Source of the DNA: Octopus sinensis
Lineage: Eukaryota
Direction of reading: 5' to 3'
Assembly (NCBI RefSeq): GCF_006345805.1
Contig: NC_042998.1
Span: 122,884,001-122,948,000, forward strand
Length of the DNA stretch: 64,000 bases
Part shown: positions 7,679-53,489 of the stretch, piece by piece
Layout: every line of letters starts with the position of its first letter
Position numbering within the stretch: the first letter of the stretch is position 1
The notes under the pieces: model-generated
The model's database searches: none
Told to the model about the DNA's origin: nothing
What the model saw: the letters and a program-made list of their open reading frames with translations, nothing else
Made by a program: the position numbers and the translations under genes

Positions 7679-7782
7679 TATATATATATATGTTATACAT
7701 ACACATAGATATAATATGTGAATGCACGCACACACATATACATATATATCTATATGTATGTATATGTTTCTTTATGCATACC

Positions 7783-7828
<46 letters not shown>

Positions 7829-8055
7829 CACACACACATATATATATATATATGTTATACATACACATAGATATAATATGTGTGTGAGTGTGTGCGTGCG
7901 TGCGTGCGTGCGTGCGTGTGGGTGTGTGTGAACTGTGTATGTATTCTTTTATTAAACTCTAAATGAAGGGAAATAAAGCGCATAAGTTGCGTATCCCTAA
8001 TTTTAGATGATCCAGGAATTTTCTCCAATACCAACACAGACAGAGTTGCATGTAC

Positions 8056-8119
<64 letters not shown>

Positions 8120-8334
8120 TATATATATATATGTTATACATACACATAGATATAATATGTGTGTGAGTGTGTGCGTGCGTGCGTGCGTGCGTGCGTGTGG
8201 GTGTGTGTGAACTGTGTATGTATTCTTTTATTAAACTCTAAATGAAGGGAAATAAAGCGCATAAGTTGCGTATCCCTAATTTTAGATGATCCAGGAATTT
8301 TCTCCAATACCAACACAGACAGAGTTGCATGTAC

Positions 8335-8390
<56 letters not shown>
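7570..8390. repeat. Adjacent tandem duplications (~150-bp x2 and ~279-bp x2) within microsatellites
   Basis: GAACTGTGTATGTATTC...ACAGAGTTGCATG at ~7930 and ~8209; TGAATGCACGC...GATATAATATG at ~7570 and ~7720. Confidence 0.9.
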
Positions 8391-8403
<13 letters not shown>

Positions 8404-11269: not shown

Positions 11270-11575
11270 TGATAAAAATGTTAAGACAACAAAACAATGA
11301 AAGACACCACGATATTATGTAAATAGAGGAATTTATCTGTAAATATAATATGTGAAAATTATTCGGTAGCCATGATAAAACTCCGAGTTTCGGATGCCGG
11401 AGTGGAAATCCACACCGTCACCACTTCAGTTATCCGGCCATCGGAAGAAAACTATGAAAAATTTATAGTAATATTCCGATGGCCGGATAACTGAAAAGAT
11501 GGCGCCGTGGATTTCCACCCCGGCATCGGAAACTCGGAGTTTTATCGTAGCTACCGAATAATTGTCACATATTAC

Positions 11576-11581
<6 letters not shown>
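11270..11581 (-). mobile_element. Foldback PLE-terminus element (~118-bp imperfect arms) with hammerhead-like core
   Basis: 11339-11459 is inverted against 11462-11581. + arm: GATAA-CTGAAAA-GATG..CATC-G-GAAACTCGGAGTT-TTATC (11486-11546). One-sided tail at 11270-11338. Lies between (TA)n and (CA)n. Confidence 0.75.
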
Positions 11582-11651
<70 letters not shown>

Positions 11652-11950
11652 TAAAGGCGCATGTCATAGTGGTTAGAGTGTTGCCCTTATGATTGCGAGA
11701 TCGTGGGTTCGATTCCCAGACCGGGCGTTGTGTTGTGCTCTTGAAGAAAGCACTTCATTTCACGTTGCTCTGCGATCGTTTCGTCATCTGACATATGATA
11801 CACGGTGCACCTGCACAGGTACTGTCGATTTGATGAAGGGAATGAGCTTATGTGTACACAAACATTTGATCACTATAATAAAATCATCTGTGTCGTTGTT
11901 CGGCAATTACCGAACCCTCATACGTCGTCTAACGACGGGAGAGTCCATGT
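11652..11950 (+). mobile_element. SINE family C (tRNA-derived)
   Basis: Box A-like TAGTGGTTAGAGTG and box B GGGTTCGATTCCC; second copy at 19870-20160 (-). Confidence 0.8.
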
Positions 11951-12099
11951 TATATATATGTATATATATACATGTGCGTGTGTGTATGTGTGTGTGTGTG
12001 TGTGTGTGCGTGTGTGTGTGTGTATATATATATATAGGTATGTATAACGTATTTCGGTTAATCTAGTAAAAACTGATTGTTATACTCTCTTTTACTCTC

Positions 12100-12505
12100 T
12101 TTTACTCTTTTACTTGTTTCAGTCATTTGACTGCGGCCATGCTGGAGCACCGCCTTTAATCGAACAAATCTACCCCAGGACTTATTCTTTGTAAGCCCAG
12201 TACTTATTCTATCGGTCTCTTTTGCCGAACCGCTAAGTGACGGGGACGTAAACACACCAGCATCGGTTGTCAAGCAATGCTAGGGGGACAAACACAGACA
12301 CACAAATACACACACACATACATATATATATATACATATATACGACAGGCTTCTTTCAGTTTCCGTCTACCAAATCCACTCACAAGGCATTGGTCAGCCC
12401 GGGGCTATAGCAGAAGACACTTGCCCAAGATGCCACGCAGTGGGACTGAACCCGGAACCATGTGGTTGGTTAGCAAGCTACTTACCACACAGCCACTCCT
12501 GCGCC
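12100..12505 (-). mobile_element. SINE family A, full-length, internal (TA)n/(TG)n
   Basis: Minus strand starts GGCGCAGGAGTGGCTGTGTGGTAAG (box A) ... GGTTCAGTCCC (box B). At least 8 related copies in the window. Confidence 0.92.
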
Positions 12506-12797
12506 TTCTGAATTTTTTTCTTTTTTTTTGGCGGGCATGATGTTAGCTTGACTATTACTCCACAGTAACAGCCAAATTGCTTAGCGGAAATAATTACTAT
12601 ACTCTACCATGGTGTCGTGTCCTTTTTGTTCTTTTCTGTGATAGAAGTACATATAAATGTTTGTAAATGACAACTTCATTTCTACCGCATCCTTTCAAAA
12701 GTTCATTTTGTGTGTGGTTACGATATAGCATAGAGTTCTTTCATTGCATACATTGGCCCAGTCAGGTACACAGACTTGTAGGTGCATTTACTTCTAA

Positions 12798-12828
<31 letters not shown>

Positions 12829-12870
12829 TGTATGTATGTATGTATGTATGTATGTATGTATGTATGTATG

Positions 12871-12906
<36 letters not shown>

Positions 12907-12954
12907 CCTCTATTTAATCACATGCACACACACACATACACACATACCACACAA

Positions 12955-12986
<32 letters not shown>

Positions 12987-13403
12987 ATGTATTCTCTAAT
13001 ACAAAGGATATATTTATTCCTTAACACACTTTCACACACTGTGAACATGTCTAAAAGCGAAACTCGTGAGTTACTGGTCTATATTTCAGTCGAAATGAAT
13101 ATATTATACTCTACTTTGTAGTGAATTCTTTGAAGTTGATGTAATTTGTTTCAAAAGAGCCACCAATATCAACCACCACCACTGAACACCACCCCCCATC
13201 GCCACCACCGCCACTAACAGCACAGTCACACAAACACCAACACTACCAGCATCATTGTCATGATCATCGTCATCGATATCTATGATCATTGTCGTTGTCG
13301 CCATCGTCGTCAGGACCGCCTCCAACCACCTCACAACCACCACCATCATCATTATCATCGCTATCATCATAACATTTTATATGGATATATGTAAATTTGT
13401 ATG

Positions 13404-13470
<67 letters not shown>

Positions 13471-13642
13471 CTGTGTGTGTGAGTGTGCATATGTGTGTAA
13501 TTTTGTATCTACTCACATATATATGTATGTATATATGTACGTATTAATTATCCGTTTTAATATATTTCCATATTTTTGTTTTGATGTTGCCAAAACTATG
13601 ACTGAGATATTTTTATCAACCTTTCGTCAGTTTATATTTCAT

Positions 13643-13846
13643 CTATATGTCATCAGAGAAGGTAATGCTATGACCCTTTACAAGGCCTCTGAGACTCAAG
13701 AAAACTGGAGAGGAGGCTGTACTGACTCTGGAAACTTGACCCCGGTTGCTTACAATTGACTGCACTTTACTAAAATCATCCAAGGTGCCAAATTGTCGTA
13801 TTAAACTGGGCGACGGATTAAGTCTGCAACCCGGCAGACTTTTGAT
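13643..13846 (-). CDS. Candidate terminal coding exon of an unidentified gene (67 aa, IKSLPGCRLNPS...GHSITFSDDI*)
   Basis: Polypyrimidine acceptor TTGCCTTCTTTTATTGCAG|ATC; only the phase-0 frame stays open; non-repetitive and more GC-rich than its flanks. No homolog recognised. Confidence 0.35.
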   Translation of the reverse strand: MKSLPGCRLNPSPSLIRQFGTLDDFSKVQSIVSNRGQVSRVSTASSPVFLSLRGLVKGHSITFSDDI

Positions 13847-13984
13847 CTGCAATAAAAGAAGGCAATTTATGGATGGCAATGAAATGAAAAACGATATGAA
13901 ATGATAAATATTAAAGTAAGAATAGCTGAAGAAGAAAGAAGGTATTTCATACATTTGATGTTCTAGGTTCTTAATGTTGGTTGT

Positions 13985-14207
13985 AATATTAGTTCCAAAT
14001 TTTGGCACAAGGCCCAAAATTTTGGTGGAGGGGCTAAGTTGATTACATCCATCCTAGTGATTGATTATTGATACTTATTTTATCGATTCAGAAAAAGATG
14101 ATAGGTAAAGTTGGCGTCTACGGAATTTGAACTCAGAACGTAGAGACGGGCGAAATACCGCAAACATTTTTCTCGGTGTGCTACCGATTCTGTCAGCTCG
14201 CTACCTT
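13985..14207 (-). mobile_element. SINE family B
   Basis: Reverse complement of the GGCGGCGAGCTGGCAGAATCG...GAGTTCAAATT...AATAAGTACCAG family. Confidence 0.8.
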
Positions 14208-14344
14208 AATTTTGGTTGTTATGTTGAGTTTGTTAGAGAAGAATGGTGTGGAAATGGGGAAATGTAGGAGACATAGTTTGATATTTAACTTAATATTATA
14301 CTAATGTTTGACAAAATATTCTATAAATAGCTGGCTATAGATGC

Positions 14345-14880
14345 CAGTTTCGCCGAGTGGTAAGAAGCTTACTTCCCCACACATGGTTTCGGATTCGGTC
14401 CCACTGCGTGGCACTTGAGAAACTATTTTCTACCATTGCCTCGGGCCTATCTTGTGAATGGATTTGATAGACGAAAACTGAAAGAAGCCCATCGTATATA
14501 TGTTTGCACACACACACACTACGACCGCTAGTCACTAAAGTTTTTCTCTCTCTCTCTCCCTCTCTGTTTATTTTCTCGTGTTCCTTTCTGTTGAAGAGCG
14601 TAGGCTCGAAACGTAAAAGACTTTCTCACCTTCCTGAGTGTTAAACTAATACACCTTTTGTTGTTTAGACACCTGTCTTAATCGTTTTTTAAATATAAAT
14701 TCCAACTATATATATATTTACGTATGTGTGTGTGTGTTTATGTCTGTGCTTATCTCCTGCACTGCTTAACAACCAATGTTGGTGCGTTTATGTCCCCCTA
14801 GCTTAGCGGTTCAGCAAAAAATCTGGTAGAATAAGTTCCAGATTTGAAAAACTAAAATAATTACTGGGATCGATTCTACA
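14345..14880 (+). mobile_element. SINE family A split by a PLE-terminus insertion (14530-14710)
   Basis: SINE head at 14345-14500 and SINE 3' part at 14720-14880. The intervening piece has CTGTTGA-AGAGCGTAGGCTC-GAAACGTA-AAAG (14583-14620). Confidence 0.75.
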
Positions 14881-15073
14881 AAAACTTCCTGACTAAAATC
14901 ATTCAATGGTAGAAACAAATAAAATATAAACTGTTCTTAATAATAATCAGTATCAATAAATGTTGAATCAATTTGAAAGTAAGATCCCGGCTAGGAGGAT
15001 AGATACATGTCTGTATGACAGGATATGTAGAATACTTTATACATACAAACACCACACACACACACACACACAT

Positions 15074-15113
<40 letters not shown>

Positions 15114-15122
15114 TTATATATA

Positions 15123-15157
<35 letters not shown>

Positions 15158-15158
15158 C

Positions 15159-15532
15159 ACTCATCGGGCTAAAGAGACCTTGCTTTTGATTAAGGTGTTT
15201 TTGGCCCGATGAGTAGCTAGAGGATTGCCCTTCGTTTAGATAATTACTACTTCTGAAGTTCTGCTAGCTATGAAACATATGTAGCCAGGATTTTGTCTAC
15301 TCCATTCCCTAATTTTGGGTTTCTATTCGCATACACAGCAACCTCTACTTCTAACCGTAAGCTACAAATCATTTTTTTTTCAGCTTATTGAACTACGATT
15401 CGGGAAAAAACCAACCTTCTAAGTCAATAAACCACTATTGTTCCTGAAAGATGTTTTTTTTAAAACTTCAACGGACTGCTCGATGCTTAATATCTTCCTA
15501 CACCTTGATCGTTGGGTCTTACCTTTACACAC
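15159..15532 (+). mobile_element. PLE terminus with short foldback, hammerhead motif and ORF N-terminal tail
   Basis: Hairpin 15159-15181 / 15192-15214. Motif TTTTGGC-CCGATGA-GTAGCTAG..CTAGCTAT-GAAACATATGTA-GCCAGGA. Colinear with 27760-28090. Confidence 0.75.
15199..15290 (+). ncRNA. Type I hammerhead-like ribozyme (variant core CCGAUGA)
   Basis: Stem I 7 bp, stem II 8 bp, GAAAC-AUAU-GUA with the palindrome ACAUAUGU. Confidence 0.6.
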
Positions 15533-15561
15533 ATAATTACATGTGTACATACATATATATT

Positions 15562-15940
15562 GTTGGCATCCTTTTGTCTCGGGAGACAATGGAGTTGGGC
15601 ATAAACTAATCCAGTTTAGTTCTTACATTTCATGTCCTCTCCAGTTTTGTGCAGGCTTGGGCTAGATGTAAGAAAATTCTGCTGACGTAGTCGAAAGGAG
15701 TGCAGAGCATTACATTTAGCACTAGCTTGGTTGCAGGAGCTGCCGGAAGAGTGTCGAGTTGAACACTAAACCGCCTACGGGGCGCCACTCCGGATTTCTT
15801 TGAAGGTTGTCTCCTTTCAATAATCCTGGATAGGGACCCATACCGGGTACTGTCAGCCGGGGCCGGCTGAGCTCTGGACTCATGTCAGACAGGGTCGTCA
15901 CTCCCTGAAGTAGTGAAGAAAATCGCTACCCACTACCTAT
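15562..15940 (-). mobile_element. Short RTE-derived non-autonomous element (5'UTR-like part plus 3' end)
   Basis: Minus strand has AAATCCGGAGTGGCGCCCCGTAGGCGG..GGCAGCTCCTGCAACCAAGCT (resembles RTE 5' UTRs from memory) and ends CCATTGTCTCCCGAGACAAAAGGATGCCAAC. Confidence 0.5.
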
Positions 15941-16020
15941 ATATATATATATATATTTATATTTGTTGTGCAAGATTTAGTAAGGAGAGACCACACAATA
16001 AGAAAGAAGAAAGCAAAGGA

Positions 16021-16060
16021 CCACTGATGTGGTCACCTGAGTGTGACGAAAAAACTCTGG
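16021..16060 (+). ncRNA. Degenerate hammerhead-like motif in a PLE-terminus remnant (15960-16180)
   Basis: CCA-CTGATGTG-GTCAC(CTGAGT)GTGAC-GAAAAAACTC-TGG. Confidence 0.45.
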
Positions 16061-16175
16061 CCGAAATAAGATTAAGTTTAATGTAAAAAAATAAATAACA
16101 CTGAAGCAAAGTAACACCAAATATATAGTGCGTGTCTTTTTATTGGCTAAACTGGCAAAATTACCATTCCGAAAT

Positions 16176-16240
<65 letters not shown>

Positions 16241-16245
<5 letters not shown>

Positions 16246-16420
16246 ATATAGAAGGAGCTTCTACAGGACTAGAACTGTTTCATTCAAGAGAAAAGATTTC
16301 TCTTGAATGAAACAGTTCTAGTCCTGTAGAAGCTCCTTCTATATAATAAATTAATTTTACTCTACTATGTATTGAGTACCTTATTTACTGTGGTTAACCC
16401 CGAATCAACCCGGGACCTAC
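16241..16420 (+). mobile_element. Perfect 53-bp-arm palindrome plus 71-bp tail, inserted in (TA)n
   Basis: 16241-16293 is the exact reverse complement of 16297-16349; 3-nt loop AGA. Confidence 0.85.
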
Positions 16421-16664
16421 ATATATATATATATATATATATAGATAGATAGATAGATATATACATATATATATATGCATACATATATATACATATATAT
16501 ATACATATATATACATATATATATACATATATATACATATATATATACGTATATATACATACATATATATACATATATATACATATATATATGCACGTAT
16601 ATATACATCCATATATATACATATATATATATTTGTACATACACACACATACACATACACACAC

Positions 16665-17160
16665 GCGTATATAAAGTAGTCTTTAGTAAATGTGGAGCAT
16701 CGTATTTAGAGAAAAATCTCTAGGGAATAATGCCTATGCAAATAATGCACTCAGACACTGCAATAATACAAAGAAACACTGAAGGAAATGTCAGACCCAG
16801 GATTTTAAAGTATTCATCAGGACTAGTGAACGCCACTGAGCAATCTTAGAATCATGGACGTCTTACTTATGAACAAATTGAGACCAGCCATTAACAACAG
16901 AGAGGAACTACATGAGACAGACTGGTTACTATAGCAACATCAGTTTGCCCATATCATCTTCCTCCTTCCTCCCCACACAAACCTGCGCTACAAATTTTCG
17001 ATGCCTCGCTTCAAATCTCCTGAAGATGTGTTATAACCCGTAAATATAGAAAGTAAAAGAGCAAAGTTGATTTTTGTCTTCCTTTTCCTTTTGTAGTTCA
17101 CTTTGTACCTACTCGTATTGTTACGGCCTTACACAACAAATCTCTTTAAAGTTATACCAC
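16665..17160 (+). pseudogene. PLE 3' fragment: decayed GIY-YIG plus hammerhead-like motif
   Basis: [14 protein letters not shown] ... NLRIMDVLLMNKLRPAINNREE; CTGAAGA (17020) ... GAAAGTA (17049). Confidence 0.65.
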
Positions 17161-17265
17161 ACAATGCTTTTCCCAAACTACTCCATTTTAATGTATACAT
17201 ACATACCTACATGCATACAAACATACATACATATACATACATATATATGTATGCATGTATATATG

Positions 17266-17305
<40 letters not shown>

Positions 17306-17314
17306 CACATACAT

Positions 17315-17345
<31 letters not shown>

Positions 17346-18129
17346 AACATAAATATATCAACTTACAAATCTCTATGTTTCTGTATATCCATCTATATCT
17401 CGTTATGTGTGTGTTGTCGTGGACAAGTATTAGAATGAATAAAGTGATAGATGAGTTCAATTGAATGAATAAGTGGATAGAAAAATAGGTAGATAAACAG
17501 ATAGACAAATTCATGAGTGTTTTGAGGGGGAGATACGAGGTAAAACAATAAGACAATGTTCTTATCCAGATGGATAAATAGATTAAGTAAATTGAATAAA
17601 TAAAGTTGTATTTGATAGTCTAGGTAATCTAATACTTACGAGTCAAGATGTAGGAATCAAGACATCGATTGAAATATACGGTGTAATTACCAATAGATTT
17701 CTTTTAAAGGTTACATGTCACAAATCTTAATAGAAACCAAGCTATATATATTTTAGTGTCTAACCGTCACACGTGATTATCTAGTCTAATTGAATCCTGT
17801 GATGGTTAAATTTCTGTGAAATATAGCTCTTTTTGTTTCAAAGATGTCGGGCTAATATCTATTATAGCTATATTCAACCCTCGCCATTTAAAAATCCAGG
17901 AATGTTTAGTGTGTAATTCTGGCATTGCTGTTGTATTTAAGTATCCTACAATATTTCAGGTTTGTATCTTTATTTAACAGATGTGGTTATGTTCTAAAGC
18001 TCCTCAAATGTGCAGGAGATTAAATACAGCAAAATTTTAGCATTTTGAAATTGGCACTAAATATGTAGTTACATACAGAATAATATTTCTTGATTCTTGC
18101 ACGATTTTATTTTACTTCGTTGTTCTGGG

Positions 18130-18330
18130 GAAGGGGTAGTATTCATGCTCCTGGACGTCGAAGGTTCTCCAAGACCAGTGAGAATGATGTCATAAATATT
18201 TCTCTTGAACCTCTCTAAGTCAACACCTTCAGGAAATACACGAAGAGTGGAAAAATCTGTCAACACAATTATGTCTCTTTACATATTCAGATTTGGCAAG
18301 GGCTGCGCAATGGGGTCAACGTTCTCACTG
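18130..18330 (-). pseudogene. LINE 3'-end fragment (same family as 5760-6470)
   Basis: RVFPEGVDLERFKRNIYDIILTG. Confidence 0.5.
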
Positions 18331-19801
18331 TGGTGGTTGAAAATTCTGCTTTTAGTCCAAAGATCTATCTACATTATTCTGTTCTAATATGTGCTTGCAG
18401 TCAGATCTTGCATCGCTAGAATCAGTCCTCCTGTTTTCGCTTTTAGTTTGGTGCTTTTATGCTGTCGTTATTTTCCCCTTCGTCTCACTTCTTGGTTATG
18501 CCTTCCGTGCTATTGACCGTGGAATGGTTTCTCTCGTCTTTGGTATGTTTTCTAATTTTGTTTTCATATTGATTTTGACTTTTTAACCATTTTTCTTTTG
18601 CGTTTTAATCTAAAATTGCTGTTTTATCTTAGTTTGTGTCTGGTTTGTAATTTATCGCTCACTTATGTATAGAGCTAATGTCTTTGCTTTTATTGTGTTT
18701 TTTATTACATTTATCAATCTTCGAATATTGTCTCTAAGTATTTTTCCAGTACGGTTCTTATTTTATAGTATTTTTCTATTTGTTTCAGGTTATGTCTCAC
18801 ATGTGTGCGAATATATTCTGTTTATATCTGCTCTGAGGTGCTGGTTTCGGTAGACTGTCAGCAGCTGTCTGGTTTTACACAATTACTATTTTCTAAAGCC
18901 AATCCTCCTCCTCTACCACGGCCACCACCACCAGCACCACCACCTCCATCTCCTCCTGCTCCTGCTCCTCCTTCTCCACCAACACCACCATCACCACCAC
19001 CATCTCCTCCTCCTTCACCACCATCACCACTACCAACACTCCTCCTCCTTCTGCTCCCACCACTAATTCTTTAAGAAAATCCTTTCAGAATTATGTATGA
19101 TTCATTAGAAATGATGATTACAGAAACAATTTTTTCCTATTTTTGCTCATCCACACCCATTTTCCTCTGTCTCGGAATAAGCAACTTGTTTACGTTTATA
19201 GCTTTGACGGTTTAGGGCTTAAGCTTTAGGGTTAAATGTAAGAGGATTTAATAGTAAATAAAGGATAACAGATCGCCGGATATTATCATTTATCTGTTTT
19301 AAAACAACATATTTTATAAGCCGCATAATTCCCTTTCGCGATATATCACTTGTGTACAACGCATTCATATTTTTTTTCTGAGTCTTTTGTAAGAGTATAT
19401 TAAAAAATCAGAAGGAAAATTCAGAAATTACGTTATCACTGTCGTATCAAGATAAGCAATATTTTCACTGTAATTACCACCCAACGCAAGTTCATTAGTG
19501 TACAAAAATTGAATCATTTAAATAACAGATTGTAAATGACATCGATTTTTTTTAGGTAATCTTCATTCACCATTGAAAATACATTTAGACTAGTTGACTT
19601 TTGTTTCTGCTATAACTTCCATTGCATTTTTATGTACGGTGTAGTTGTCACGACTGCTAAAACGTTTGCTGGCTGACAAAGTATTCTGCTATTTAGGATA
19701 TTCTTGAATATTAAAACGATTACCAGAAATTCTGAATTGTATAAAAGCGACTGCAACAAAAGCAGAAAGCGGCTTTGGACTGGACTAAATCTCTCTCTCT
19801 C

Positions 19802-19866
<65 letters not shown>

Positions 19867-19869
19867 AAC

Positions 19870-20160
19870 ACTTGTCGAAGGCGACGTTTGAGTGATCACG
19901 TTTTTTGCTGAACGACCTACAGAAATGATTTGTTTATAGTAATCAAATGTTCGTGCAGCTTATTAGCTCACGTCAGCCATTAAATCAACGTTGTTTGAAG
20001 ACGTGCACCGTGTACTACGTGTCAAGTGTCGAAGTGATCGTAGAGCGACCTGAGATGAAGGGTTTTGCTCAAGAATACAACGCACCACCAGCTCTAGGAA
20101 TTGAAACCACGATCCTACGATCCCACATTCGTGGGTGTAACACTCAGACAACTATGTCCT
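19870..20160 (-). mobile_element. SINE family C
   Basis: Reverse complement matches 11652-11950 (ACACGGTGCAC, ACATTTGAT.ACTATAA). Confidence 0.75.
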
Positions 20161-20198
20161 CTGTGTGTGTGTATATATATATATATAAAATATATACA

Positions 20199-20249
<51 letters not shown>

Positions 20250-20599
20250 GTATGTATATATATATATATTTATAACTACAACTAAGGGTTTAGCAAGAAG
20301 TTGCTCCGCCACATACCGAAAATTTAGAAATAGCAGCCAAAAGACCGTTATGTCTCCACAGATAATATTTGTAACTCACGTAGGTCAAAAGAAGGAAAAT
20401 AATGAAATCAAACAGTCTTCGACAAATTATGTACGTGCGAGAATTATAAATTTGAAAATACTAGGAAAACTTACCCATTGCATTTCCGATCAAGCGTCAT
20501 TAATTAATTATTAAATTAATAGTCATTTACCTTATATCTATGATGATTATATATATATATATATATATATATATGCATATAATATATATATGTATACAT

Positions 20600-21080
20600 G
20601 CATATAAAGGTACAGGAGGTCACCAACAGGAAACAGCATGAAATACGAAAAAAATGAGTTCAAGATGTAAACAACGAAAGGAACCAATGGAAAATAGGAC
20701 AAGTAACAAAGACAACGACCCTTCATCAGTTGTCGGCTGTCTATCTTTTCCTCATTTCGAGCATTGAACGACAATATGAGTCTTCGAAGGCAGTTGCTCC
20801 CATAGGTACCAAAATAAAATTTAGGATCTATGGAGGGTCAAAGTTAGGAACAAAAACAGGACAGTGGAAACATACAAAGAAACCGAACGAAAATAAATAT
20901 GGAGGGTCGTTAGAACGAGGGTAAAATAGTGAACACTGGAGAAATATTATCTTTGACAAGAGAAAAGATAGAACAGAGAAGATAGGATACGTCCAGTCCT
21001 TAGAAAAGTCCCGAAAAAAAACAAAGATGATCACGTGAGAAAAAGAAAGATGGACAATGGCCACGTGTGAGCAACGAGAG
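20600..21080 (-). mobile_element. Probable PLE 3'-terminal remnant
   Basis: Minus strand ACAACTGATGAAGGG followed by a pyrimidine-rich tail running into (TA)n. No coding support. Confidence 0.35.
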
Positions 21081-21099
21081 GGATAGGATATCTCGAAGC

Positions 21100-22690
21100 T
21101 AAAAAGAAGTCAGACCGAACATTTATTCTGCATCGAATTAACAAATCGGTTTAACGGATTCGAAGTCCTTCAATCTGCTTCCTCAGATGAAGTCTGGCAA
21201 ACGGTCAAACACAATCTTCAATCCGTGATGTCCACAACACTCGGTACTACTAAGCGAAAAGACAAAGACTGGATCTCGGGCCGAACAATCAAAATTGCTG
21301 AAAAGGCGAAACAAGCTCGATGCAACCAATCCGATACCTTCAGACAACTGCGCCGTGAAGCAGCCCGTTCTGCCCGTGCTGATCGAAATAAATTCTGGTG
21401 GACGGTGGCTGAAGACATGGAACGCGCCGCATCTGCTAGGGACTCCGGTAAGCTCTACAGCCTCCTTCGATCGAGCACAAAGACAGGCTCGAGTGGTAAC
21501 GAAGCCATTTTGGACCGGAATGGTGATCCCATCACCAATCTTACTGAGCGCATCATCCGCTGGGGAGACCATTTCGCCAATCTGCTGAACCACGACCACC
21601 TTGTCTGCTTTTGCGAGCGACGCGATCCCAACCTTGTATAATTGCCAAACAACTCCCCCCACGCTTCAAGATATCCTTGCTGTTATCAGAAAGCTCAAAA
21701 ATAACAAAGCTGCCGGCGAAGGTAACATTCCTGCTGAGATCCTCAAGCATAGTGCATATATACTGGGGCCCGCGATTCATCAAGTTATCACCCGGGTTTA
21801 GGATACGGAAGCCCTCCCCCAAGACTGGAGCGACGCAATACTGGTACCTCTCTTTAAGAAAGGGGATAAACGTTGCTGCAGCAACTACCGTGGCATCTGT
21901 CTGATTGATGTTTCTACCAAAATATTTGCATGTATTCTTCTGAGATGATTCCACTCAGAACATGACTCTAGAACAAAACCAAATCAGTCTGGTTTCGAGG
22001 CTGCATCGATCAAATCTTCATCCTAAGACGAATCATCTGCTTTGTTGCGTTTGTTGCTTTTTCGTCAAGGATATATACTACGCAGATGACATTGCGATAC
22101 TTGGCGAAACATTTGCTGACGTCCAGTTTGCTATCAATGAACTCCAGCTTGTTGCAGCGCAGATTGGAATGAAAGTATGCCTCGAAGACCAAAATTCTCA
22201 CAGCCGACTTCGCCCCACCAGACAAAACACCCATTGTCCTCAATGGTGATACTCTTGAAGAGGTTGAGAGTTTCAAATACATTCGCGCCATCATTACAGC
22301 TACAGGTCAAGGTGAGGCTGACATTAAAACACGATTCGACCTTGCTCGTCAAGCCTTCAAACGACTCAATGCACAACTCCCGTCAATATCTGAGATCCGA
22401 CGCACCACCAAAGTACGGATCTACCAAGCAATAGTGCGAACGATTCTCTTTTAGGGCAGCGAGTCATGGCCGATGAGGGTGGAAGATATTAAGAGATCCT
22501 TCCATCACCTCTGTCTACGCCGCATCCTTCGTGTCTGATGGCATCACTTTGTCTCCAACAATTCGGTGCGACACCAGTGCAAAATCACCTCCCTCCGACA
22601 ATTCATCTTAACGAGACAGCTGCGTTGGCTGGGTCATGTCCTCCGACGTCAACCAGGAGAATTCATCTACGAAGCAATTGCTCCGTTAAA
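21100..22690 (+). pseudogene. RTE-clade LINE ORF2 fragment with an internal RT deletion
   Basis: WISGRTIK..ARADRNKFW, LKNNKAAGEGNIPAEILK, DWSDAILVPLFKKGDKRCCSNYRGICL, YADDI, RIYQAIVRTIL. The segment between the Q.GF motif and YADD is missing. Confidence 0.9.
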
Positions 22691-23278
22691 ACGTAGTATA
22701 AATAAAACTAGAATAAATAGATATAAATATTTATCTTATCCATGAAAATGTATTTTAGCTTATAGAAGAAAAAATAACAAACTAGAGTATAACATTACTG
22801 GAAAATTCAGATACAAGTAATTAAAAGAAAATATTTAAAACTATATATATATATATATATACACACATAATATACATTAAGTGAAGCTAAAATACTATAA
22901 TTTAATCTATGTGCATAAATTATTTATTTATTTAATAAATATCTAAGATAAATCTTATTCTAATTAAGTAATATATACTTATTCTAATTAAGTAATACAT
23001 ATATATGCTAACTTACATAATACTAATATACATAATACTACTACAATCTATGACTACAAGAAATTAAAAAAAGTAAAATATATACACATTATATACACAC
23101 AAATTAGTTAAACTTACTATATAATTAATTTATATATTGATTTAATATTACACTCATAGAATTAACCAAACTATCAATTAATATCAAAATATTTACTTAA
23201 ATGAAATACTACATAACAATAAAATTCCTACCTATTAGATAAGATTATGTATATATATATATATATGTATATATATTC

Positions 23279-23352
<74 letters not shown>

Positions 23353-23359
23353 TCAATAT

Positions 23360-23570
23360 GTGACCGCGTGTGTATCGTTGGCGTTTTCATTCTCAGTTTA
23401 CCCTTCCTTGGACCTTTCCTTTTTCTATGTTTCTGACGAAGAGCTCCGCTCGAAACGTTTAATCCTCCTTCTTTCTTTTTTTTCCTGAGCGTCCAATAAC
23501 ACTATACTTATTCCACATCCTTGGGTTGTTGTGTTTTTTTGCCTTTTCATATTTGGATTAACTATATATA
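23360..23570 (+). mobile_element. PLE terminus remnant with hammerhead-like core
   Basis: CTGACGA-AGAGCTCCGCTC-GAAACGTT (23433-23459); same layout as 14583-14620. Confidence 0.6.
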
Positions 23571-23575
23571 TATAT

Positions 23576-23830
23576 ATACATATAAGATGGATGACCACCA
23601 AGTGGGCATCCAATATGCTAGATGTAGACCCCATATGATCTGACCACTAAGAAAGTGGTCAGACCATATGGGTCTACATCTAGGATATAGGATATCCACT
23701 TAGTGTTCAGCCCTCTTATATGTATGTCATATAATTTTTCTGAATTTTCAGATTCTTTCAATATGCTAGGCCACTGGTTTTAAATTGATATTAATATTCA
23801 ATGTTTCACCCTTATTATTTAAATTTTATA
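23576..23830 (+). mobile_element. Foldback element (~73-bp imperfect arms) plus tail
   Basis: Arms centred on ACCACT-AAGAA-AGTGGT (23576-23726). The tail ACTGGTTTTAAATTGATATT..ATTATTTAAAT recurs reversed at 39250-39315. Confidence 0.7.
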
Positions 23831-24349
23831 TATACATATTTAATCTTAACGAAATCTTGGGCTGATGTCAGGAATATTGATACAGGTATGTATTTCTAGC
23901 ATCTCTATATCTGATGGCGAAATATCGACATCTACCTTTCAATTGGATCCTTGGCTAGTTGCCGACCTGGTGTATGATTTTTCGGGTGTTTTAACACCCA
24001 GTGTTATTAGGGAGTCTCTCTAAACCCTATCCCACAGTAAATTCGGCAAATGTACAAACCACATAGATGTGTATGTACAATCGATAATGTTTATATATAT
24101 ATGTCTTCATATAATTCGGTTGCTTTCTTCCAAGGAATCTAGTGCTCTTAGCTTAGATTTTCTTGGGGCTACCCACATTGGAGCAGTCTCGAATTAACCA
24201 GCTGAAACCACTTAGATAATCTGGAAGTCGACTGAGGATAGAAAACTTCGAATGACCCGTCCTTGTTTTTTCCTATCCTTTTCTGTATCGTCTAACTGTC
24301 CGGATATTTTCTTGTCGCCTGTTACATTCTTCCATTTTTTGTTGTCTTA

Positions 24350-24438
<89 letters not shown>

Positions 24439-24653
24439 TATATATATATATATTTGAGTAATTGAATGAATTATCTTATTAAGGATAATTCGAAAGATAA
24501 CTGATACCTGGGTAGCAAATTCACATCAGAAAGAACACGGTTGAAGCTGCGTCCCTAGGGCATAGACTACGTGTCTTCGTGCGGAAATTTGTATGTTTAT
24601 TTTAAAATTATAACTATATGAAAGAATGGATTTGAACGACTAGTTAACAAATA

Positions 24654-24750
24654 TCCTTTATTCTCGACATATGTTTCGAAGGCTGCATATTCCTAATTCC
24701 GAAGGAATAAGGAGTACATTATGCAGATTTCTCATCAGGAAAATCAAGGA
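24654..24750 (-). ncRNA. Minimal type I hammerhead ribozyme (PLE pLTR)
   Basis: UCCUUGAUUUUC-CUGAUGA-GAA..CUGCAUA/UAUGCAG..UUC-GAAAC-AUAU-GUC-GAGAAUAAAGGA. 12-bp stem I with one mismatch; predicted cleavage between 24666 and 24665. Confidence 0.85.
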
Positions 24751-25305
24751 ACTTATGTCGACATCAAAATGCACAAAGACTTTTAGCTGACCGCTCTCAA
24801 GGAGCCCATGGCGATAATGAGTGTCTCTTTATAATGAGTGATGTCAGAGTGGCTGAATGTAGAAGAATCTAGAAGTTTCTAAAGGTTCAAGAGTTCAAAC
24901 GAAGTAGGAGGATGGAGGCATAAGAATAGTAAGGTGAGAGAGTGCAGGTCAAAAGAATGGCGGGTTTAAATGATTTCTTTTGTGAATGAGTGCCTGTGTG
25001 TGTGACTGTATATAACTGTCTTAATGTGTGTATGTGTGTGTCTGAATGCGTGATTGAGTTTGTGGATGGGTAGATGTCAGAAAACTGACAGCTTTGAGTT
25101 GAAAGGTCTGTATCTGTGTGTTCGATTATGTTTACTGTAGGGAACGGAAAGTAGATAGCGAAAGGGAGAAAGAATCGGGCGAGGTTAGAGGCAACGCAAG
25201 AATGGATAGTAGTAATTGGGAATATAAGAAAATCTTCTTTGACTATTGGGGTGAAATATAGCAAAACATTTTTTTTGGAAATCGAGGGCTTATCTATATT
25301 AGTTA

Positions 25306-25797
25306 CTATTTATATGAATGAAAAGCGTGTCTTTTCCAGTGTAAGCACCTGTAGGATCTTTCGACGATTGTGTTTATTAAAGGGCCTTTGGCGAACAAAA
25401 TATGAAAAAGTTCGGAATTACAGATGCCACAAAATTTTCTGCCTTTATCAAACGGGAAGGACACCGACAAAATGGACCATTCGAGCTTGAACGTAGTGTT
25501 ATTGTTCTTCAGACGCCAGACTAATTTGCTTAGCCCCGTGCTGTGTTGCTTTCTCTTACCTCTGAAAGTGGAATAATGGTTGGAGATCCTTTGGGATAAT
25601 TTAGAAGAGGTTGCACCAATATAGAAGTAAACATCGGTTCCAGAAGAGATTTTGCATTGGTAAGTGGTGTTTCTAATTTTGGAATTTTTGGATAAGAACT
25701 TTAATCTGTTGGGGTTGGTTACCGATACTAAGACAGAGTTTTTATTGCTGTGATAGGTGTAAAAATTGTTGCTGGCTTCGGCCACGATACTATTCAT
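25306..25797 (-). CDS. PLE GIY-YIG endonuclease domain (Naiad-like)
   Basis: TYQCKIS..FYIGAT..LSQRISNH..F..STGLSKLVWRLK..WSIL..CGICNSE..LIN..RCLH. Confidence 0.85.
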   Translation of the reverse strand: MNSIVAEASNNFYTYHSNKNSVLVSVTNPNRLKFLSKNSKIRNTTYQCKISSGTDVYFYIGATSSKLSQRISNHYSTFRGKRKQHSTGLSKLVWRLKNNNTTFKLEWSILSVSFPFDKGRKFCGICNSELFHILFAKGPLINTIVERSYRCLHWKRHAFHSYK

Positions 25798-25817
25798 CTT
25801 ATTATCATTACTATTAG

Positions 25818-26642
25818 TTATAATATCGTCGGCAAATTCCTGGCTATAGGAATGCTGCGATTGTTATCATCAATAATATAACTGTTATTAAGAATGCTGG
25901 TACTATTACCATTAACACCACCACTGTTAATAATCTGGTTAATGTTATTATCATTATTACTATTGCTCACGCTAATGCTGCTATGAATGTTGCTAATATC
26001 CATACTACTTCTATTATTATTATTATTGTATGTTACGTTGGAATGGGTAAGGGCGGTGTCGCTACTCATGGGTGGAGTGACCCTATTGAGCAGCTTATTA
26101 TTGTGGGAAGCTATTATCTGCGAAAGATTTTTAGTATTTGAGAATGCTATTCTTACTTTATGCGAATTTATAGTGGAGTAGTATCTAGAATTCCTAGGAA
26201 AATTCTTAGTAACGGCTTCACGGAAGTGTAAAGGGAGATTAGACCTGATTTGTCTCCCGAAAGGAATCACAAACCAAATATATTTTTTTTTGTTCTTGGA
26301 ATGGCTGAGAGTGTTGACATTTACATTAAAGGGTATATTTCTGTGTTGTAGAATGGGTTTAGGTTTACGCTGGCCTCCCCTGCTCCGTAAGTTATTATTG
26401 TAAAATATATTTGTGTCGACGTTGCTAGAGCTGAAATCACTATTTATGTTATTTATATTATTATTAGAAGTTATCTTATCTTGATGGGCAGATATTAGTT
26501 TAGGATGAGCCGGATCGATATATGATACATTATCCCTATAACCGGCCTTTGACAAGGCGGCATTATAAAATTCTGCTTTCTGTTTAAAAATGTCGACATT
26601 TGCTGATAACTTAGATAGTCTTAAGGATATATTTTTAACCAA
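25818..26642 (-). CDS. PLE RT C-terminal (thumb) region and Asn-rich linker; 5'-truncated, one frameshift before GIY-YIG
   Basis: KNISLRLSKLSANVDIF..FYNAALSKAGY; YIWFVIPF..KNFP..YYSTINSHKVRIAFSNTKNLSQIIASHNNKLL. Confidence 0.8.
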   Translation of the reverse strand: MVKNISLRLSKLSANVDIFKQKAEFYNAALSKAGYRDNVSYIDPAHPKLISAHQDKITSNNNINNINSDFSSSNVDTNIFYNNNLRSRGGQRKPKPILQHRNIPFNVNVNTLSHSKNKKKYIWFVIPFGRQIRSNLPLHFREAVTKNFPRNSRYYSTINSHKVRIAFSNTKNLSQIIASHNNKLLNRVTPPMSSDTALTHSNVTYNNNNNRSSMDISNIHSSISVSNSNNDNNINQIINSGGVNGNSTSILNNSYIIDDNNRSIPIARNLPTIL

Positions 26643-26665
26643 ATTATTTTGATGTCGACATAAGT

Positions 26666-26762
26666 TCCTTGATTTTCCTGATGAGAAATCTGCATAATGT
26701 ACTCCTTATTCCTTCGGAATTAGGAATATGCAGCCTTCGAAACATATTTCGAGAATAAAGGA
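26666..26762 (+). ncRNA. Hammerhead copy in the inverted pLTR, with GUC>UUC change
   Basis: CTGATGA at 26678; GAAACATATTTC at 26739-26750. Confidence 0.7.
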
Positions 26763-26829
26763 TATTTGTTAACTAGTCCTTCAACTCCATTCTTTCATAT
26801 ACTTATATATATATATATATATATATATA

Positions 26830-27545
26830 TTGGGTCAACCCATAAATAATGTGGTTTTTTTATGCTTCTTTTATTTTAAGATAAACAAAGTTCTTTTTTA
26901 ATCTAAAATATACTCTTCTCCATTTTCTACAATGGTCTTCCATCTAGCTGGTAAACTTGCAAGGCCCCTACTTGACGAAAAATACTCCTCAAGTGCTGTT
27001 CTGATTACAAAATTCATATTTTTTCCGTACAAATGATTTTGAAACTACAGAATAAATAGTAATCAAATAGGGCAATGTCCGGTGAATATGGTGGGTGAGG
27101 CATCGTCTCCAGCCTTTGTAATGTCATCCTCACTGTATGTGGCCGAAGATGGTCGATTTTCTTCTAGCGCTGACTCAAGCCGCTCACGTTGCTCGCTGTC
27201 GATCTCCTTTGTTATCGTTTGGTGTGGGTTTAAAAGTTCAGAGTGGACGAAACATTTCATATCCCACCAAACAGATAACAACACCTTATGTGGGTGAAGA
27301 CCTTATTTAGCCTGGGGTGCCGGTACTTCTCCTTTCCCAACACAATAATTTTGGCACTTGACATTTTTATAGATAATCTATATCTATCCAAAAAGGGTTC
27401 ATTCATGAGACGTGACAGCAAAGAAGAGCACAATTCGCTCTCTGTGCACGATTGGACTACGAAAGTTTGTGAGGAAACCACTGACCCAATCTGCCGACTT
27501 TTCCGATGGAACGCAGGTGCCGATGAATGGTTGAATGACCAAATC
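26830..27545 (-). mobile_element. Mariner (DD34D-type) transposase fragment with one TIR
   Basis: LLSVWWDMK..ELLNPHQTIT..EQRERL, then a HSPDIA/DY motif; TA|TTGGGTCAACCCATAAATAATG end. Confidence 0.85.
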
Positions 27546-27557
27546 CATGTATATGGG

Positions 27558-28088
27558 ATACATATGTTTCATAGCAGACGAAACATCAGAAGTAGTAAAA
27601 ATCCAAGCGAGGAGTATACCACCGTGTACACTTCAGGCCAAAGATATCTCATACTCTCTACATACATCTCTGTTCACTCTACACATTCTGATTGAATCAC
27701 CCATGCGTGAACATGTACTTCCTTGCGACAATGTAACTTTTAATTTAATCAAGATATCATTGGCCTGAAGCGTAGCCTGCGGTATATACCTCACTTGGAT
27801 TTTTACCACTTCTGAGGTTCTGCTCGCTATGAAACATATGTAGCCCGGATCTTTACAACTGCATTCCGTAACTCTTGTATTCTTATTCGCACACCCGGCA
27901 ATCCTGGTCACTTACCGTGGAATATAAAAGAATTTTTTCCAGCTTATCGTTCTTCGATACAAAAAAAAAACTATCCTCAACCTTCCATCTCAAGAAAGCA
28001 CTATTGTCCCTGAAAGTTGCTCTTTTTATATTTACTACGGATTGCTTGAAGCTAATTTTCTTCCTACACCTCGATCCTTGGATCTTAC

Positions 28089-28092
<4 letters not shown>
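27558..28092 (+). mobile_element. PLE foldback: ~90-bp inverted arms, ~100-bp spacer, hammerhead motif, ORF N-terminal tail
   Basis: 27558-27649 inverted against 27752-27845; GGC-CTGAAGC-GTAGC..GCTAT-GAAACATATGTA-GCC. The tail reads (frameshifted) FQLIVLRY..HLKKALLSLKVAL..DCLKL and ends at (CA)n. Confidence 0.75.
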
Positions 28093-28178
<86 letters not shown>

Positions 28179-28979
28179 GGGTTAGAGAGAGATACACATA
28201 CACACACTGCTTCCGATTTTATCCACAAAAACACACTCATAAAACAAAACACGCACACACATATATACACGCGCACATACACACACACACACACGCACAG
28301 AATGTTGTTTACTATTTCGTTTGTAGAGGATTATTGGTCTTTAGTATATTCTCCCTGAGGGGCTGTAGCTGATCAACTAAAGTGCCCAGGGAAATAAATT
28401 GGAGACTGTAATCCCGTACTGGGCGAAAATAAAAACGAGATCTTCTGTATATGTGGATGTGTGTCTGTGGTCTCTGAGGATGTATGGATAATACTAAAAG
28501 CAGCACTGATGAAATGTAAAGATATACATATGTGCTTATTTATATATTTATGTGTACATATGTGTTTATGTCTATAAATATATATACATTTCATCAGCAT
28601 TGGTTTTGGTTTATTTTTTGCTGTCGATGCCAATGTTGTTATTGATGTCGTAGTGGGTGCTACTTTCCTCGTCGTTCAGTGTCACTTCTTTTGTTTTACT
28701 ATTATTTCCCACGCGTATTTCTTGACTAGTCTCCTTGGATCGCTTTTTCATATATTATACTATGATTAATTTTTGTCCTTTGATCTGGTTTTCAAAAGAA
28801 TAATAAAAATCAAAGACTACAAAAATGTATTTTAGTAATTCTTTTAAAAACTGTATTTTCTAAAATAGAGATTATAAATCTAAAGGAAAATAAGGAAGCA
28901 GTACTTACCACCCCTTGGCGACGGGCTCGAAGATGACATGTTCCATTGCAAAGTTATTCTTCTCAATATTACACACACT

Positions 28980-29080
28980 AAAGGCGGCGAGCTGGCGAAA
29001 TGTTTGGCACTCTGGGCAAAACGCTTAGTAGAAATACCGTGTTTAAATTCTGAGTTCAAATTCTGCCAAGGTCGACTCTA
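28980..29080 (+). mobile_element. SINE family B, 5' part
   Basis: AAGGCGGCGAGCTGGCG..TTCTGAGTTCAAATTCTGCCAAGGTCGACT. Confidence 0.75.
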
Positions 29081-29099
29081 CGTGCCTGCTCTTCTTTCC

Positions 29100-29540
29100 G
29101 CCTTCTTTTGGTATATTTTTCCAGTTACTCTAATACTTTATCAACGACTATTGTATCAAACAGGCGAGCAATGGCCTTTTCCTCTTTCATGAATTTCCAT
29201 AATGCCCTGGCATGAATGATTTTTGTGCTTATCTGTTCGAATTTTCATGTTCCACAGCAGCTTCACGTAGTCGGCTTCAAAGATGCTATTTCGTTCATGC
29301 TCCTTCTATTTTTCCACTTTGGGATCCTATGTTTTTCCCTTTTTATAAATTCGCCAATATATGATTGCAGTAAATTTGTCGTATCTCCAATGAATATAAA
29401 GCTTCTGAGCAAATTTGTAATCTGAGACTGCAGGCGCAGCAGTCTCCCCTCTTTCGCTACAACATGACATATCTTCTCCTGTTTACTTGATCTTCCACCT
29501 GAAGACTTTCTACTAAAGTCCTCGTGTGATCCTTGAAAGA
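29100..29540 (-). pseudogene. Decayed R4/Dong LINE C-terminal fragment
   Basis: ..FEADYVKLLWNMKIRTDK.. resembles the KILWDF.IQTD motif. Confidence 0.45.
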
Positions 29541-29710
29541 GAAAGTTTTAGGAGTTAGTTGTTCACTTTGGACCTATGCATATAGCACAGACTTTTCGCC
29601 AGGAGTAACCCGTTACCGATACTATGTCTGGTGTCCTTTAAATAAGTAATATTTATCTTTAACTATATGGAATACTTTTTAGTTGATTTTTCTATCACGG
29701 AACAGTACAT

Positions 29711-29741
<31 letters not shown>

Positions 29742-29767
29742 TTATATATATATATATGTGTGTGTGT

Positions 29768-29810
<43 letters not shown>

Positions 29811-29863
29811 TGTGTGTATATATATATGTATATATATATATGTATATATATATATGTATATAT

Positions 29864-30205
29864 CTACTGTTGAGTCTGCTGAGAGTCATTTTCTTTTTAT
29901 GTCTTATAATTTAGTTTAACACTCTGACCGGTAAAATCTCTACTTATTTCTTATTTTCATTTTCCTAAAATTTTCGTTGCGGCATGGAACCTTTTCAATA
30001 GTTTTGATAGTCAAGACTATTGAAAAGGTTGCAAGGGGAAACAACTATTTTAGGAAAATAAAAATAAGAAATAGGTGGAAATTTTACCGGTGAGTGTGTT
30101 ATATTATAAGGCACAAAAGAAAATAACTCTCCTCAGACACAACAGAATATGCTTCAACACACGAACTCACATAAAGAATCTTGCAAACTAAATCCAAAAA
30201 CGAAA
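29864..30205 (+). mobile_element. Foldback element (~140-bp imperfect arms) plus tail, in (TA)n
   Basis: Centre AATAGTTTTGA-TAG-TCAAGACTATT; arms pair out to 29865/30145 (e.g. ACCGGTAAAAT / ATTTTACCGGT). Confidence 0.8.
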
Positions 30206-39246: not shown

Positions 39247-39354
39247 CATAAACATTTAAATAATGAGGGAGATAAATTGAATATTAATTTAATTAATATC
39301 AATTTAAAACCAGTACTCTGATTTCTCTGATTTTTCAGATATATATATATATAT

Positions 39355-42007: not shown

Positions 42008-42043
<36 letters not shown>

Positions 42044-43380: not shown

Positions 43381-43430
<50 letters not shown>

Positions 43431-53443: not shown

Positions 53444-53489
53444 AATGATATAATACAGGGTGATAATGATCACCCTGTATTATATCATT
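53444..53489. repeat. Perfect 21-bp-arm hairpin with mariner-type TACAGGGTG ends
   Basis: AATGATATAATACAGGGTGAT-AATG-ATCACCCTGTATTATATCATT. Confidence 0.85.

Follow-up and report, generated by a model that had tools for sequence, protein, structure and literature searches.

The foldback elements in a stretch of 64,000 nucleotides (nt) of the Octopus sinensis genome (NC_042998.1, positions 122,884,001 to 122,948,000; below, the window) are almost certainly ordinary end fragments of Penelope-like elements (PLEs), namely insertions of a pseudo-long terminal repeat (pseudo-LTR) and tail from six PLE families. In these hairpins an inverted and a direct arm face each other across an apex, and this apex probably has a fixed position that corresponds to the 5' end of the element RNA, a reading that is well supported in one family (F3) and plausible in three others (F1, F2 and F6). 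We think it likely that each hairpin was built anew at its insertion, from two cDNAs that ran off the 5' end of a capped sense RNA and were joined head to head. We labeled the families after their window elements as F1 (11270), F2 (15159 and 27558), F3 (16241), F4 (23576), F6 (29864) and FP (24458-26801), and we give positions within a family as +n or -n, the offset from the first base of its hammerhead core.

Arm ends and the apex junction

To locate the 5' ends of F3 copies, we used a tail-only query, which is blind to the 5' end, and obtained 40 places, or 39 with a tandem duplicate counted once. Eighteen of these 39 ends fell between +17 and -6, a 24-nt interval just 5' of the hammerhead, while four lay at +46 to +61, a single one (at -54) lay between -7 and -150, and 16 lay beyond -150 (a copy with an internal deletion and a copy merged as identical to long ones were both classed as long). 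In a constant-hazard simulation, none of 200,000 runs placed 18 ends in a 24-nt interval. The sizes of F3 copies are bimodal, not graded. Moreover, the two arms of a copy agreed in their class: both ended near the pile-up in 24 loci and both beyond it in 9, with no mixed loci (P = 2.6e-8), in a count that leaves out three loci with one very short arm and the long copies whose flank showed no arm. Similar pile-ups occurred in F1 at about -33 (approximately 20 of 30 direct ends between -26 and -47), in F2 at about -80 (11 of 30 direct arms) and in F6 at about -13, and in F1, F2, F3 and F6 the pile-up base is an A that follows a pyrimidine. The graded series of spacers (1.9 kb, 100 bp, 3 nt) proposed in an earlier note on this DNA mixes families, and a smooth gradient is not supported, given these family-specific bases.

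In F3, the arms that stop at the pile-up carry an additional base. Arms ending at -6 had a G before the end in 12 of 15 cases, where the genomic base is T, compared to 7 of 34 at other ends (Fisher P = 2.4e-4). A genome-wide search for the F3 apex pattern (one arm extending to -6, the other to at least -5) yielded 179 strand matches, compared to 0 for the control; of the 100 rows listed of these 179, scored by eye, 77 had G at this base, 6 had the genomic base and 17 had some other one (a script verified the first 30, with 24 G). These 100 rows correspond to 63 independent loci plus 3 tandem duplicates. Both arms reach -6 in 32 of the loci, with the G on both in 20 of the 32; in the other 31, one arm opens with a base other than A (17 T, 13 G and 1 C), and a G stands in front of it in 20 of the 31. 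For L1 and SVA, untemplated G at full-length 5' ends has been put down to copying of the cap (PMC3287187). In D. virilis, an intron ends at helix I (PMC4209133). A 3' splice site at the F3 pile-up is nevertheless disfavored, because what the copies have in common is one extra base and not an exon.

The junctions themselves vary, with 45 kinds in the 63 loci (13 of 13 differed in the first sample). Thus, the hairpin is made anew at each insertion, and the fixed apex does not denote a self-propagating family, as the earlier note had suggested it might.

The opposite ends of the arms are also fixed, with two 3' ends in each family, one per arm. In all 21 F3 foldbacks, one arm stops at an inner site, located at +55 to +65, while its partner extends to the tail end (+130), as expected, because two adjacent reverse transcriptase (RT) start sites and priming on both strands have been reported in vitro (PMC11167929). 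An inverted arm combined with a one-sided tail is likewise found in F1, F4, F6 and FP. With respect to targets, 66 of 70 F3 tail ends adjoin (AT)n and one of the 70 runs on into an open reading frame (ORF), in a set not reduced to unique loci. F6 occupies AT-rich, non-repeat sites, and a target duplication of 10-12 nt flanks the whole hairpin in approximately 16 of 23 rows, with 3 rows in TA runs and 4 ambiguous (by eye). Since this duplication surrounds the entire hairpin, the hairpin is one insertion event and not a miniature inverted-repeat transposable element (MITE).

We also asked how the arms age. The two arms of one copy differed from each other roughly as much as they did from other copies (own-arm versus other-copy identity of 0.904 versus 0.912 in F1, n = 6; 0.942 versus 0.933 in F6, n = 12; 0.990 versus 0.989 in FP, n = 8; 0.909 versus 0.898 in F4, n = 9); these figures come from a repeat test, the first having been confounded by palindromes. 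Homogenization of the arms was rejected on this closeness, and the hairpins therefore decay freely, with no sign of maintenance; the source of dsRNA that the earlier note saw in them is a putative one. The same G before the pile-up base was present in contigs of another organism (X16), and together with the diverged arms, the target duplications and the fixed inner ends this excludes a foldback artifact of the assembly.

The window elements as ends of Penelope-like elements

The genome assembly (2.72 Gb) is rich in microsatellites, and inverted arms were checked by self-BLAST of the microsatellite-masked window and with a repeat finder. Both confirmed the six short foldbacks and the 2.3-kb element of the earlier note, with six inverted-arm pairs (F1, F3, F4, the F2 element at 27558, F6 and FP) at E values from 1e-19 to 1e-73 in the masked window. 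All six small elements have a one-sided tail, and tails and microsatellite flanks are visible directly in the window. The layout said to be common to all of them holds for the six pairs, but only in part for the F2 element at 15159, which is atypical in having an arm of only 23 nt (87% identity). The count of about five families among the six small elements was correct, since the elements at 15159 and 27558 belong to a single family (72% alike). The features are as follows:

11270..11582, minus strand: F1 foldback, with tail 11270-11337, direct arm 11338-11458 (sense minus) and inverted arm 11462-11582; arms 87% identical with a 3-nt gap; apex coinciding with the pile-up of the family, some 33 nt 5' of its core
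15159..15532, plus strand: F2 copy, with a local hairpin 15159-15181/15192-15214, a degenerate core at 15206 and a long tail
16241..16421, plus strand: F3 foldback of a young, presumably Neptune-type PLE, with inverted arm 16241-16293, direct arm 16297-16349 and tail 16350-16421; arms 100% identical with a 3-nt gap; (TA)n on both sides
23576..23830, plus strand: F4 foldback, with arms 23576-23648/23654-23725 and tail up to 23830; arms 86-95% identical with a 5-nt gap
24458..24770, minus strand: 3' end of FP, made up of pseudo-LTR 24615-24770 and tail 24458-24614; its type I hammerhead (core at 24738) is intact
25306..26645, minus strand: FP 5'-truncated PLE ORF, with an Asn-rich linker and C-terminal GIY-YIG (frame 25306-25863); reading frame broken near 25820-25860
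26646..26801, plus strand: FP inverted arm, tail-less, helix III changed
27555..28092, plus strand: F2 insertion, with inverted arm 27555-27649, a 102-nt spacer of 3' untranslated region (UTR), direct arm 27752-27846 and tail to 28092; arms 82% identical
29862..30205, plus strand: F6 foldback, with arms 29862-30007/30011-30150, tail to 30205 and a U3-A8 minimal hammerhead; arms about 82% identical with a 3-nt gap

The 2.3-kb FP element shares the layout of the small ones, as had been stated, with 98% identical arms (24615-24770/26646-26801) on either side of a 1875-nt spacer. First-look searches of the genome, in each of which 40 candidates were scored, returned 2074 candidates for F1, 1704 for F2, 286 for F3, 936 for F4, 2114 for F6 and 1395 for FP, which are not copy numbers.

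We compared arms and tails with coding PLEs, and five families (F1, F2, F3, F6 and FP) were traced to linked GIY-YIG coding sequence; the similarity to PLE termini on which the earlier note had made its interpretation depend is thus present. The GIY-YIG match exceeds the Pfam curated cut-off for F6 only, with tblastn support in F1, F2, F3 and FP. In FP, one locus (L336) holds a whole unit of pseudo-LTR, RT, linker, GIY-YIG and pseudo-LTR, and the GIY-YIG frame in the window has a Pfam E value of 8e-4, under the curated cut-off. In F3, the tail in L153 is followed without a break by an ORF that has RT and linker (a junction of pseudo-LTR and ORF; RT and linker follow the tail in FP as well), and GIY-YIG lies about 3.4 kb upstream of the repeat in L144, beyond a microsatellite-rich 3' UTR. 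The F1 3' UTR in L145 overlaps by about 70 nt with the end of an inverted piece of linker and GIY-YIG, and for F2 a degenerate GIY-YIG is located in L335, some 900 nt upstream (tblastn 5e-7, Pfam 0.0035). For F6, GIY-YIG was found in L333 (Pfam E 4.4e-6, above the cut-off), which itself lacks the repeat; L332 has the repeat together with an 84% copy of the L333 GIY-YIG region, which places GIY-YIG 0.5-1 kb upstream (L332/L333). From motifs and published descriptions, F1, F3 and FP are putatively of Neptune type.

F4 differs from the other five in that no ORF match was found in 45 loci. A unit of about 540 nt starts directly after the tail end in 17 of 20 loci, and within the 3-kb loci examined only partial tandems (approximately 1.1-1.8 units) occur. 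Lacking an ORF and arranged in head-to-tail units of about 540 nt, F4 is therefore a non-autonomous, retrozyme-like derivative; retrozymes have been described as PLE derivatives (bioRxiv 10.64898/2026.07.22.740005). A pseudo-LTR arising from a partial tandem is seen in L153 (F3), in L336 (FP) and in the same 17 of 20 F4 loci. Of the earlier suggestion that these are ultra-truncated PLEs or a retrozyme-like class, the PLE termini (in five families) and the retrozyme-like character (in F4) stand, but smooth truncation does not.

A MITE class was ruled out by the one-sided tails, the 10-12-nt duplications of varied sequence in F6, the varied junctions and the continuity with PLE ORFs. The elements do not end in inverted repeats flanked by a duplication of fixed length, and the families other than F6 lie in (TA)n; nor do they share one common internal sequence, given the variety of F3 junctions.

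Several neighboring observations concern these families. In L151 (950-3600), a tail-less F2 arm and a long PLE ORF meet head to head, the ORF at its N-terminal end. The 3' repeat belonging to that ORF has a different hammerhead, and the F2 arm either possibly caps another family or is a chance neighbor. In an F1 copy (L018:1200-1700), the 167-nt spacer between the arms encodes the N-terminus of a PLE ORF. The F3 3' UTR of about 3.4 kb (L141-L144) is largely mixed TA/TG microsatellite and is common to copies at 92-95%, and therefore the element itself spreads microsatellite-like DNA; the F6 UTR is CA-rich. At 39248-39314 of the window, a short piece of the F4 tail end lies on the minus strand within (TA)n.

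Other repeats in the window are of different kinds. An element at 49346-50183, which we take to be mariner-like (no Pfam match at E 0.01), has symmetric inverted ends of 194 nt (79%) and a broken frame, in contrast to the one-sided PLE hairpins, and a near-perfect palindrome of 46 nt (96%) at 53444-53489 has no assigned tail. Tandem duplications of 0.3-1.8 kb at 97-100% identity, bounded by microsatellites, occur at 42039-44751, 515-1459 and 7777-8391 and in L156, L157 and L350/L351; these are either recent real duplications or assembly artifacts. Short interspersed repeats are abundant (1754-1852/2327-2425, 12098-12496, 14357-14836 and others), some oppositely oriented so that they form inverted pairs by chance.

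Hammerhead cores in the families and in the window

All six families have a type I hammerhead on the sense strand of the repeat. Its core was canonical in 21 of 30 F1 copies, 8 of 30 in F2, 24 of 30 in F3, 28 of 30 in FP and 13 of 14 matched F4 copies, while F6 has a U3-A8 core in 10 of 25 copies; helices were judged by eye, and catalytic cleavage is predicted from sequence. Free folding gave a clear hammerhead-like fold only for FP (z -2.7) and F4.

Whereas the families have intact cores, almost every mini-element of the window has a core that is mutated or absent. At 11270 (F1), core position 9 is mutated in one arm and position 8 in the other; at 15159 (F2), position 4 is mutated, and at 27558 (F2), position 9 in both arms. 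The element at 16241 (F3) begins 3 nt into the core and so lacks its first three bases, and that at 23576 (F4) begins about 150 nt downstream of the family hammerhead. At 29862 (F6; 29864 in the family label), the U3-A8 core and GAAA are kept in the inverted arm only, and helix II has a mismatch. A motif scan of the window passed one site, that in the FP 3' arm (24738, minus strand), compared to 0-1 sites in each of 8 shuffles; this was a relaxed scan, the stricter version having missed even the intact FP site. Thus, the clear hammerhead cores claimed for three of the small elements are remnants. In an Rfam scan of the window, the best 150 of 331 rows included no hammerhead family; nearly all of these 150 were microRNA models below gathering scores, mostly over microsatellites.

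If cleavage by the hammerhead shaped the hairpins, its cut site might appear as a second pile-up of arm ends. No such pile-up was seen in F3, and in F6 about 3 of 60 arms have their end no more than 1 nt from the predicted cut. The hammerhead would be a passenger, its cut site differing from the apex.

Formation of the hairpins and comparison with known systems

We propose that transcription would start within the pseudo-LTR, at the pile-up base; the start of Penelope transcription does lie in the pseudo-LTR (PMC2377424, PMC8557442). The element protein would nick both target strands, one nick priming at the tail end and the other at the inner site, and the PLE protein of Anolis Poseidon (PAc) does cut and extend both strands, from two adjacent internal start sites that delimit the tail (PMC11167929). 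An RNA made from a partial tandem would hold both priming sites twice. If the sites near its 5' end were used, both cDNAs would reach the cap after 60-200 nt, the cap would be copied as an extra C, and joining of the cDNAs by microhomology with short templated fillers would give a mini-hairpin. If the downstream pseudo-LTR were used instead, the arms would be long with random stops, and their unequal lengths would leave a spacer, as in the 2.3-kb element. We give even odds to the most specific form of this proposal, a PLE counterpart of a strong-stop product, in which the upstream pseudo-LTR of a single capped sense RNA serves both nicks as template, and the two cDNAs run off the cap and are joined into an ORF-less hairpin. 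The apex would then be a base-exact record of the start, the template of the head-to-head arrangement would be sense, and a first base other than A may be a misread modified A next to the cap.

We considered that a single cDNA might instead run off the RNA 5' end and snap back, such that the second arm is templated by DNA and stops at the inner site. This is the main rival, since it is able to build short junctions, but we think it unlikely. It accounts for the agreement of the arms in length class and for the short templated fillers, self-priming has been proposed for palindromic junctions (PMC3846280), and the F3 inner site, being TA-like, could pair with a (TA)n target. However, long spacers between unequal arms, as in FP and F3, are hard to obtain in this way; the F6 inner end is fixed at non-microsatellite targets with target duplications; and both priming on two strands and the paired start sites have been demonstrated in vitro (PMC11167929). 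Improbable by comparison is ordinary random 5' truncation with an inverted pseudo-LTR, in which the short forms are the short end of a gradient, caught at palindromes. Truncation at the 5' end is standard in PLEs (PMC8557442, PMC8969392), fits F4 and, in part, FP, and could explain the 3 of 63 F3 loci with apices at upstream palindromes; in F3, however, it is contradicted by the sharp pile-up, the empty interval and the non-genomic G at an exact base, and a longer palindrome 8 nt upstream is seldom used.

Still less probable is an origin as solo pseudo-LTRs, produced when the two direct pseudo-LTRs of a full-length copy with an inverted arm at its start recombine. Full-length PLEs with an inverted and a direct 5' pseudo-LTR have been described (PMC3846280), and the product would look identical and retain the extra G, but F3 copies are near-identical (40 of 40 scored 100% over 90 nt), hence little time has elapsed, the repeats are only about 130 nt, and just the one F3 tail end in 70 noted above (loci not made unique) continues into an ORF. 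A self-propagating hairpin family or MITE class is refuted as a general explanation, and we consider it extremely improbable: fixed outer ends, a high copy number and the 18 of 63 loci that repeat an earlier junction speak for it, but so many different junctions, a one-sided tail whose presence means that the termini are not mutual inverted repeats, the varied sequence of the 10-12-nt target duplications and the continuity with PLE ORFs speak against it.

A number of observations weigh against two cDNAs running off a capped 5' end. All samples consist of top-scoring matches, and shorter copies are under-represented by the queries for F1, F2 and F6. In FP the ends form only broad clusters and in F4 they are spread evenly, with no sharp pile-up in either, and 30 of 32 FP arms continue past the candidate base. 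The transcription start at the pile-up base is itself deduced from arm ends, and a downstream promoter motif at +28 was found in only 2 of 5 families (by eye). The extra G is weaker outside F3 (F1 6 of 13, with 5 more at a genomic C; F2 4 of 14; F6 4 of 9; FP 0 of 2), and an F1 pattern search gave 3 rows, each with a different base. Templated fillers rich in CAG/CTG could supply some of the Gs. The commonest F3 junction recurs in 6 of 63 loci, and snap-back of a single cDNA can also make it. Finally, non-templated addition by RT is an alternative that would mimic copying of the cap; under this alternative, too, the cDNA must have got as far as the physical end of the RNA.

The layout of the foldbacks, with an inverted arm, a direct arm, a one-sided tail, TA targets and a hammerhead, is published PLE anatomy and not under-described: the inverted arm, tail and TA bias appear in PMC8557442 and PMC3846280, and opposite-strand pairs of hammerheads 100-700 bp apart, interpreted as truncated PLEs, in PMC4209133, which also describes the U3-A8 variant. 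How PLEs make head-to-head repeats is an open question that the apex data address, tandem and inverted structures being named as unexplained in PMC8557442, while PMC3846280 interprets palindromic junctions in terms of self-priming, favoring an antisense template without settling whether a sense template is used. Among titles and the beginnings of abstracts (supplements and most subscription papers lying outside this set), no fixed, G-marked PLE apex was reported. The fixed apex and the cap-like G on sense arms link the two start sites seen in vitro to real insertions, give a cheap, genome-only way of mapping PLE start sites, and explain many short hairpins that annotation could take for MITEs or microRNA precursors.

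Compared to endonuclease-containing (EN+) PLEs as described in PMC8557442 and PMC3846280, the octopus families share the C-terminal GIY-YIG, the pseudo-LTR with a type I hammerhead, the head-to-head arm, the one-sided tail, the microsatellite target bias and (in FP) the Asn-rich linker. They differ in that F3 and F6 have the ORF-less hairpin as a major product, in the fixed apex with its extra G, and in tails of about 55 to about 200 nt, compared to 30-40. The hammerhead pairs of PMC4209133 are the same class of object (short inserts with a hammerhead per arm, and a U3-A8 core in F6), to which the present analysis adds the mapping of the apex, its proposed link to the RNA 5' end and the extra G. 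With the PAc reaction (PMC11167929) the octopus insertions would share two adjacent internal RT starts that delimit the tail, cutting and extension of both strands, and a dispensable hammerhead cleavage; the difference is that this genome displays the predicted integrated form, with its 5' junctions and inverted products. F4 resembles the non-LTR retrozymes (bioRxiv 10.64898/2026.07.22.740005) in being ORF-less, hammerhead-bearing and head-to-tail with PLE-type ends. It differs in occurring, within the 3-kb loci examined, as the partial tandems described above and not as arrays with two whole hammerheads, and F1, F2, F3, F6 and FP differ from retrozymes in being the ends of coding elements.

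In L1 twin priming, two target nicks prime on one RNA, as we propose here, but the inverted and direct pieces of L1 do not overlap, whereas the PLE arms here overlap almost wholly. A second likeness to L1 is the G at its full-length 5' end (PMC3287187), which the F3 arms carry at the apex.

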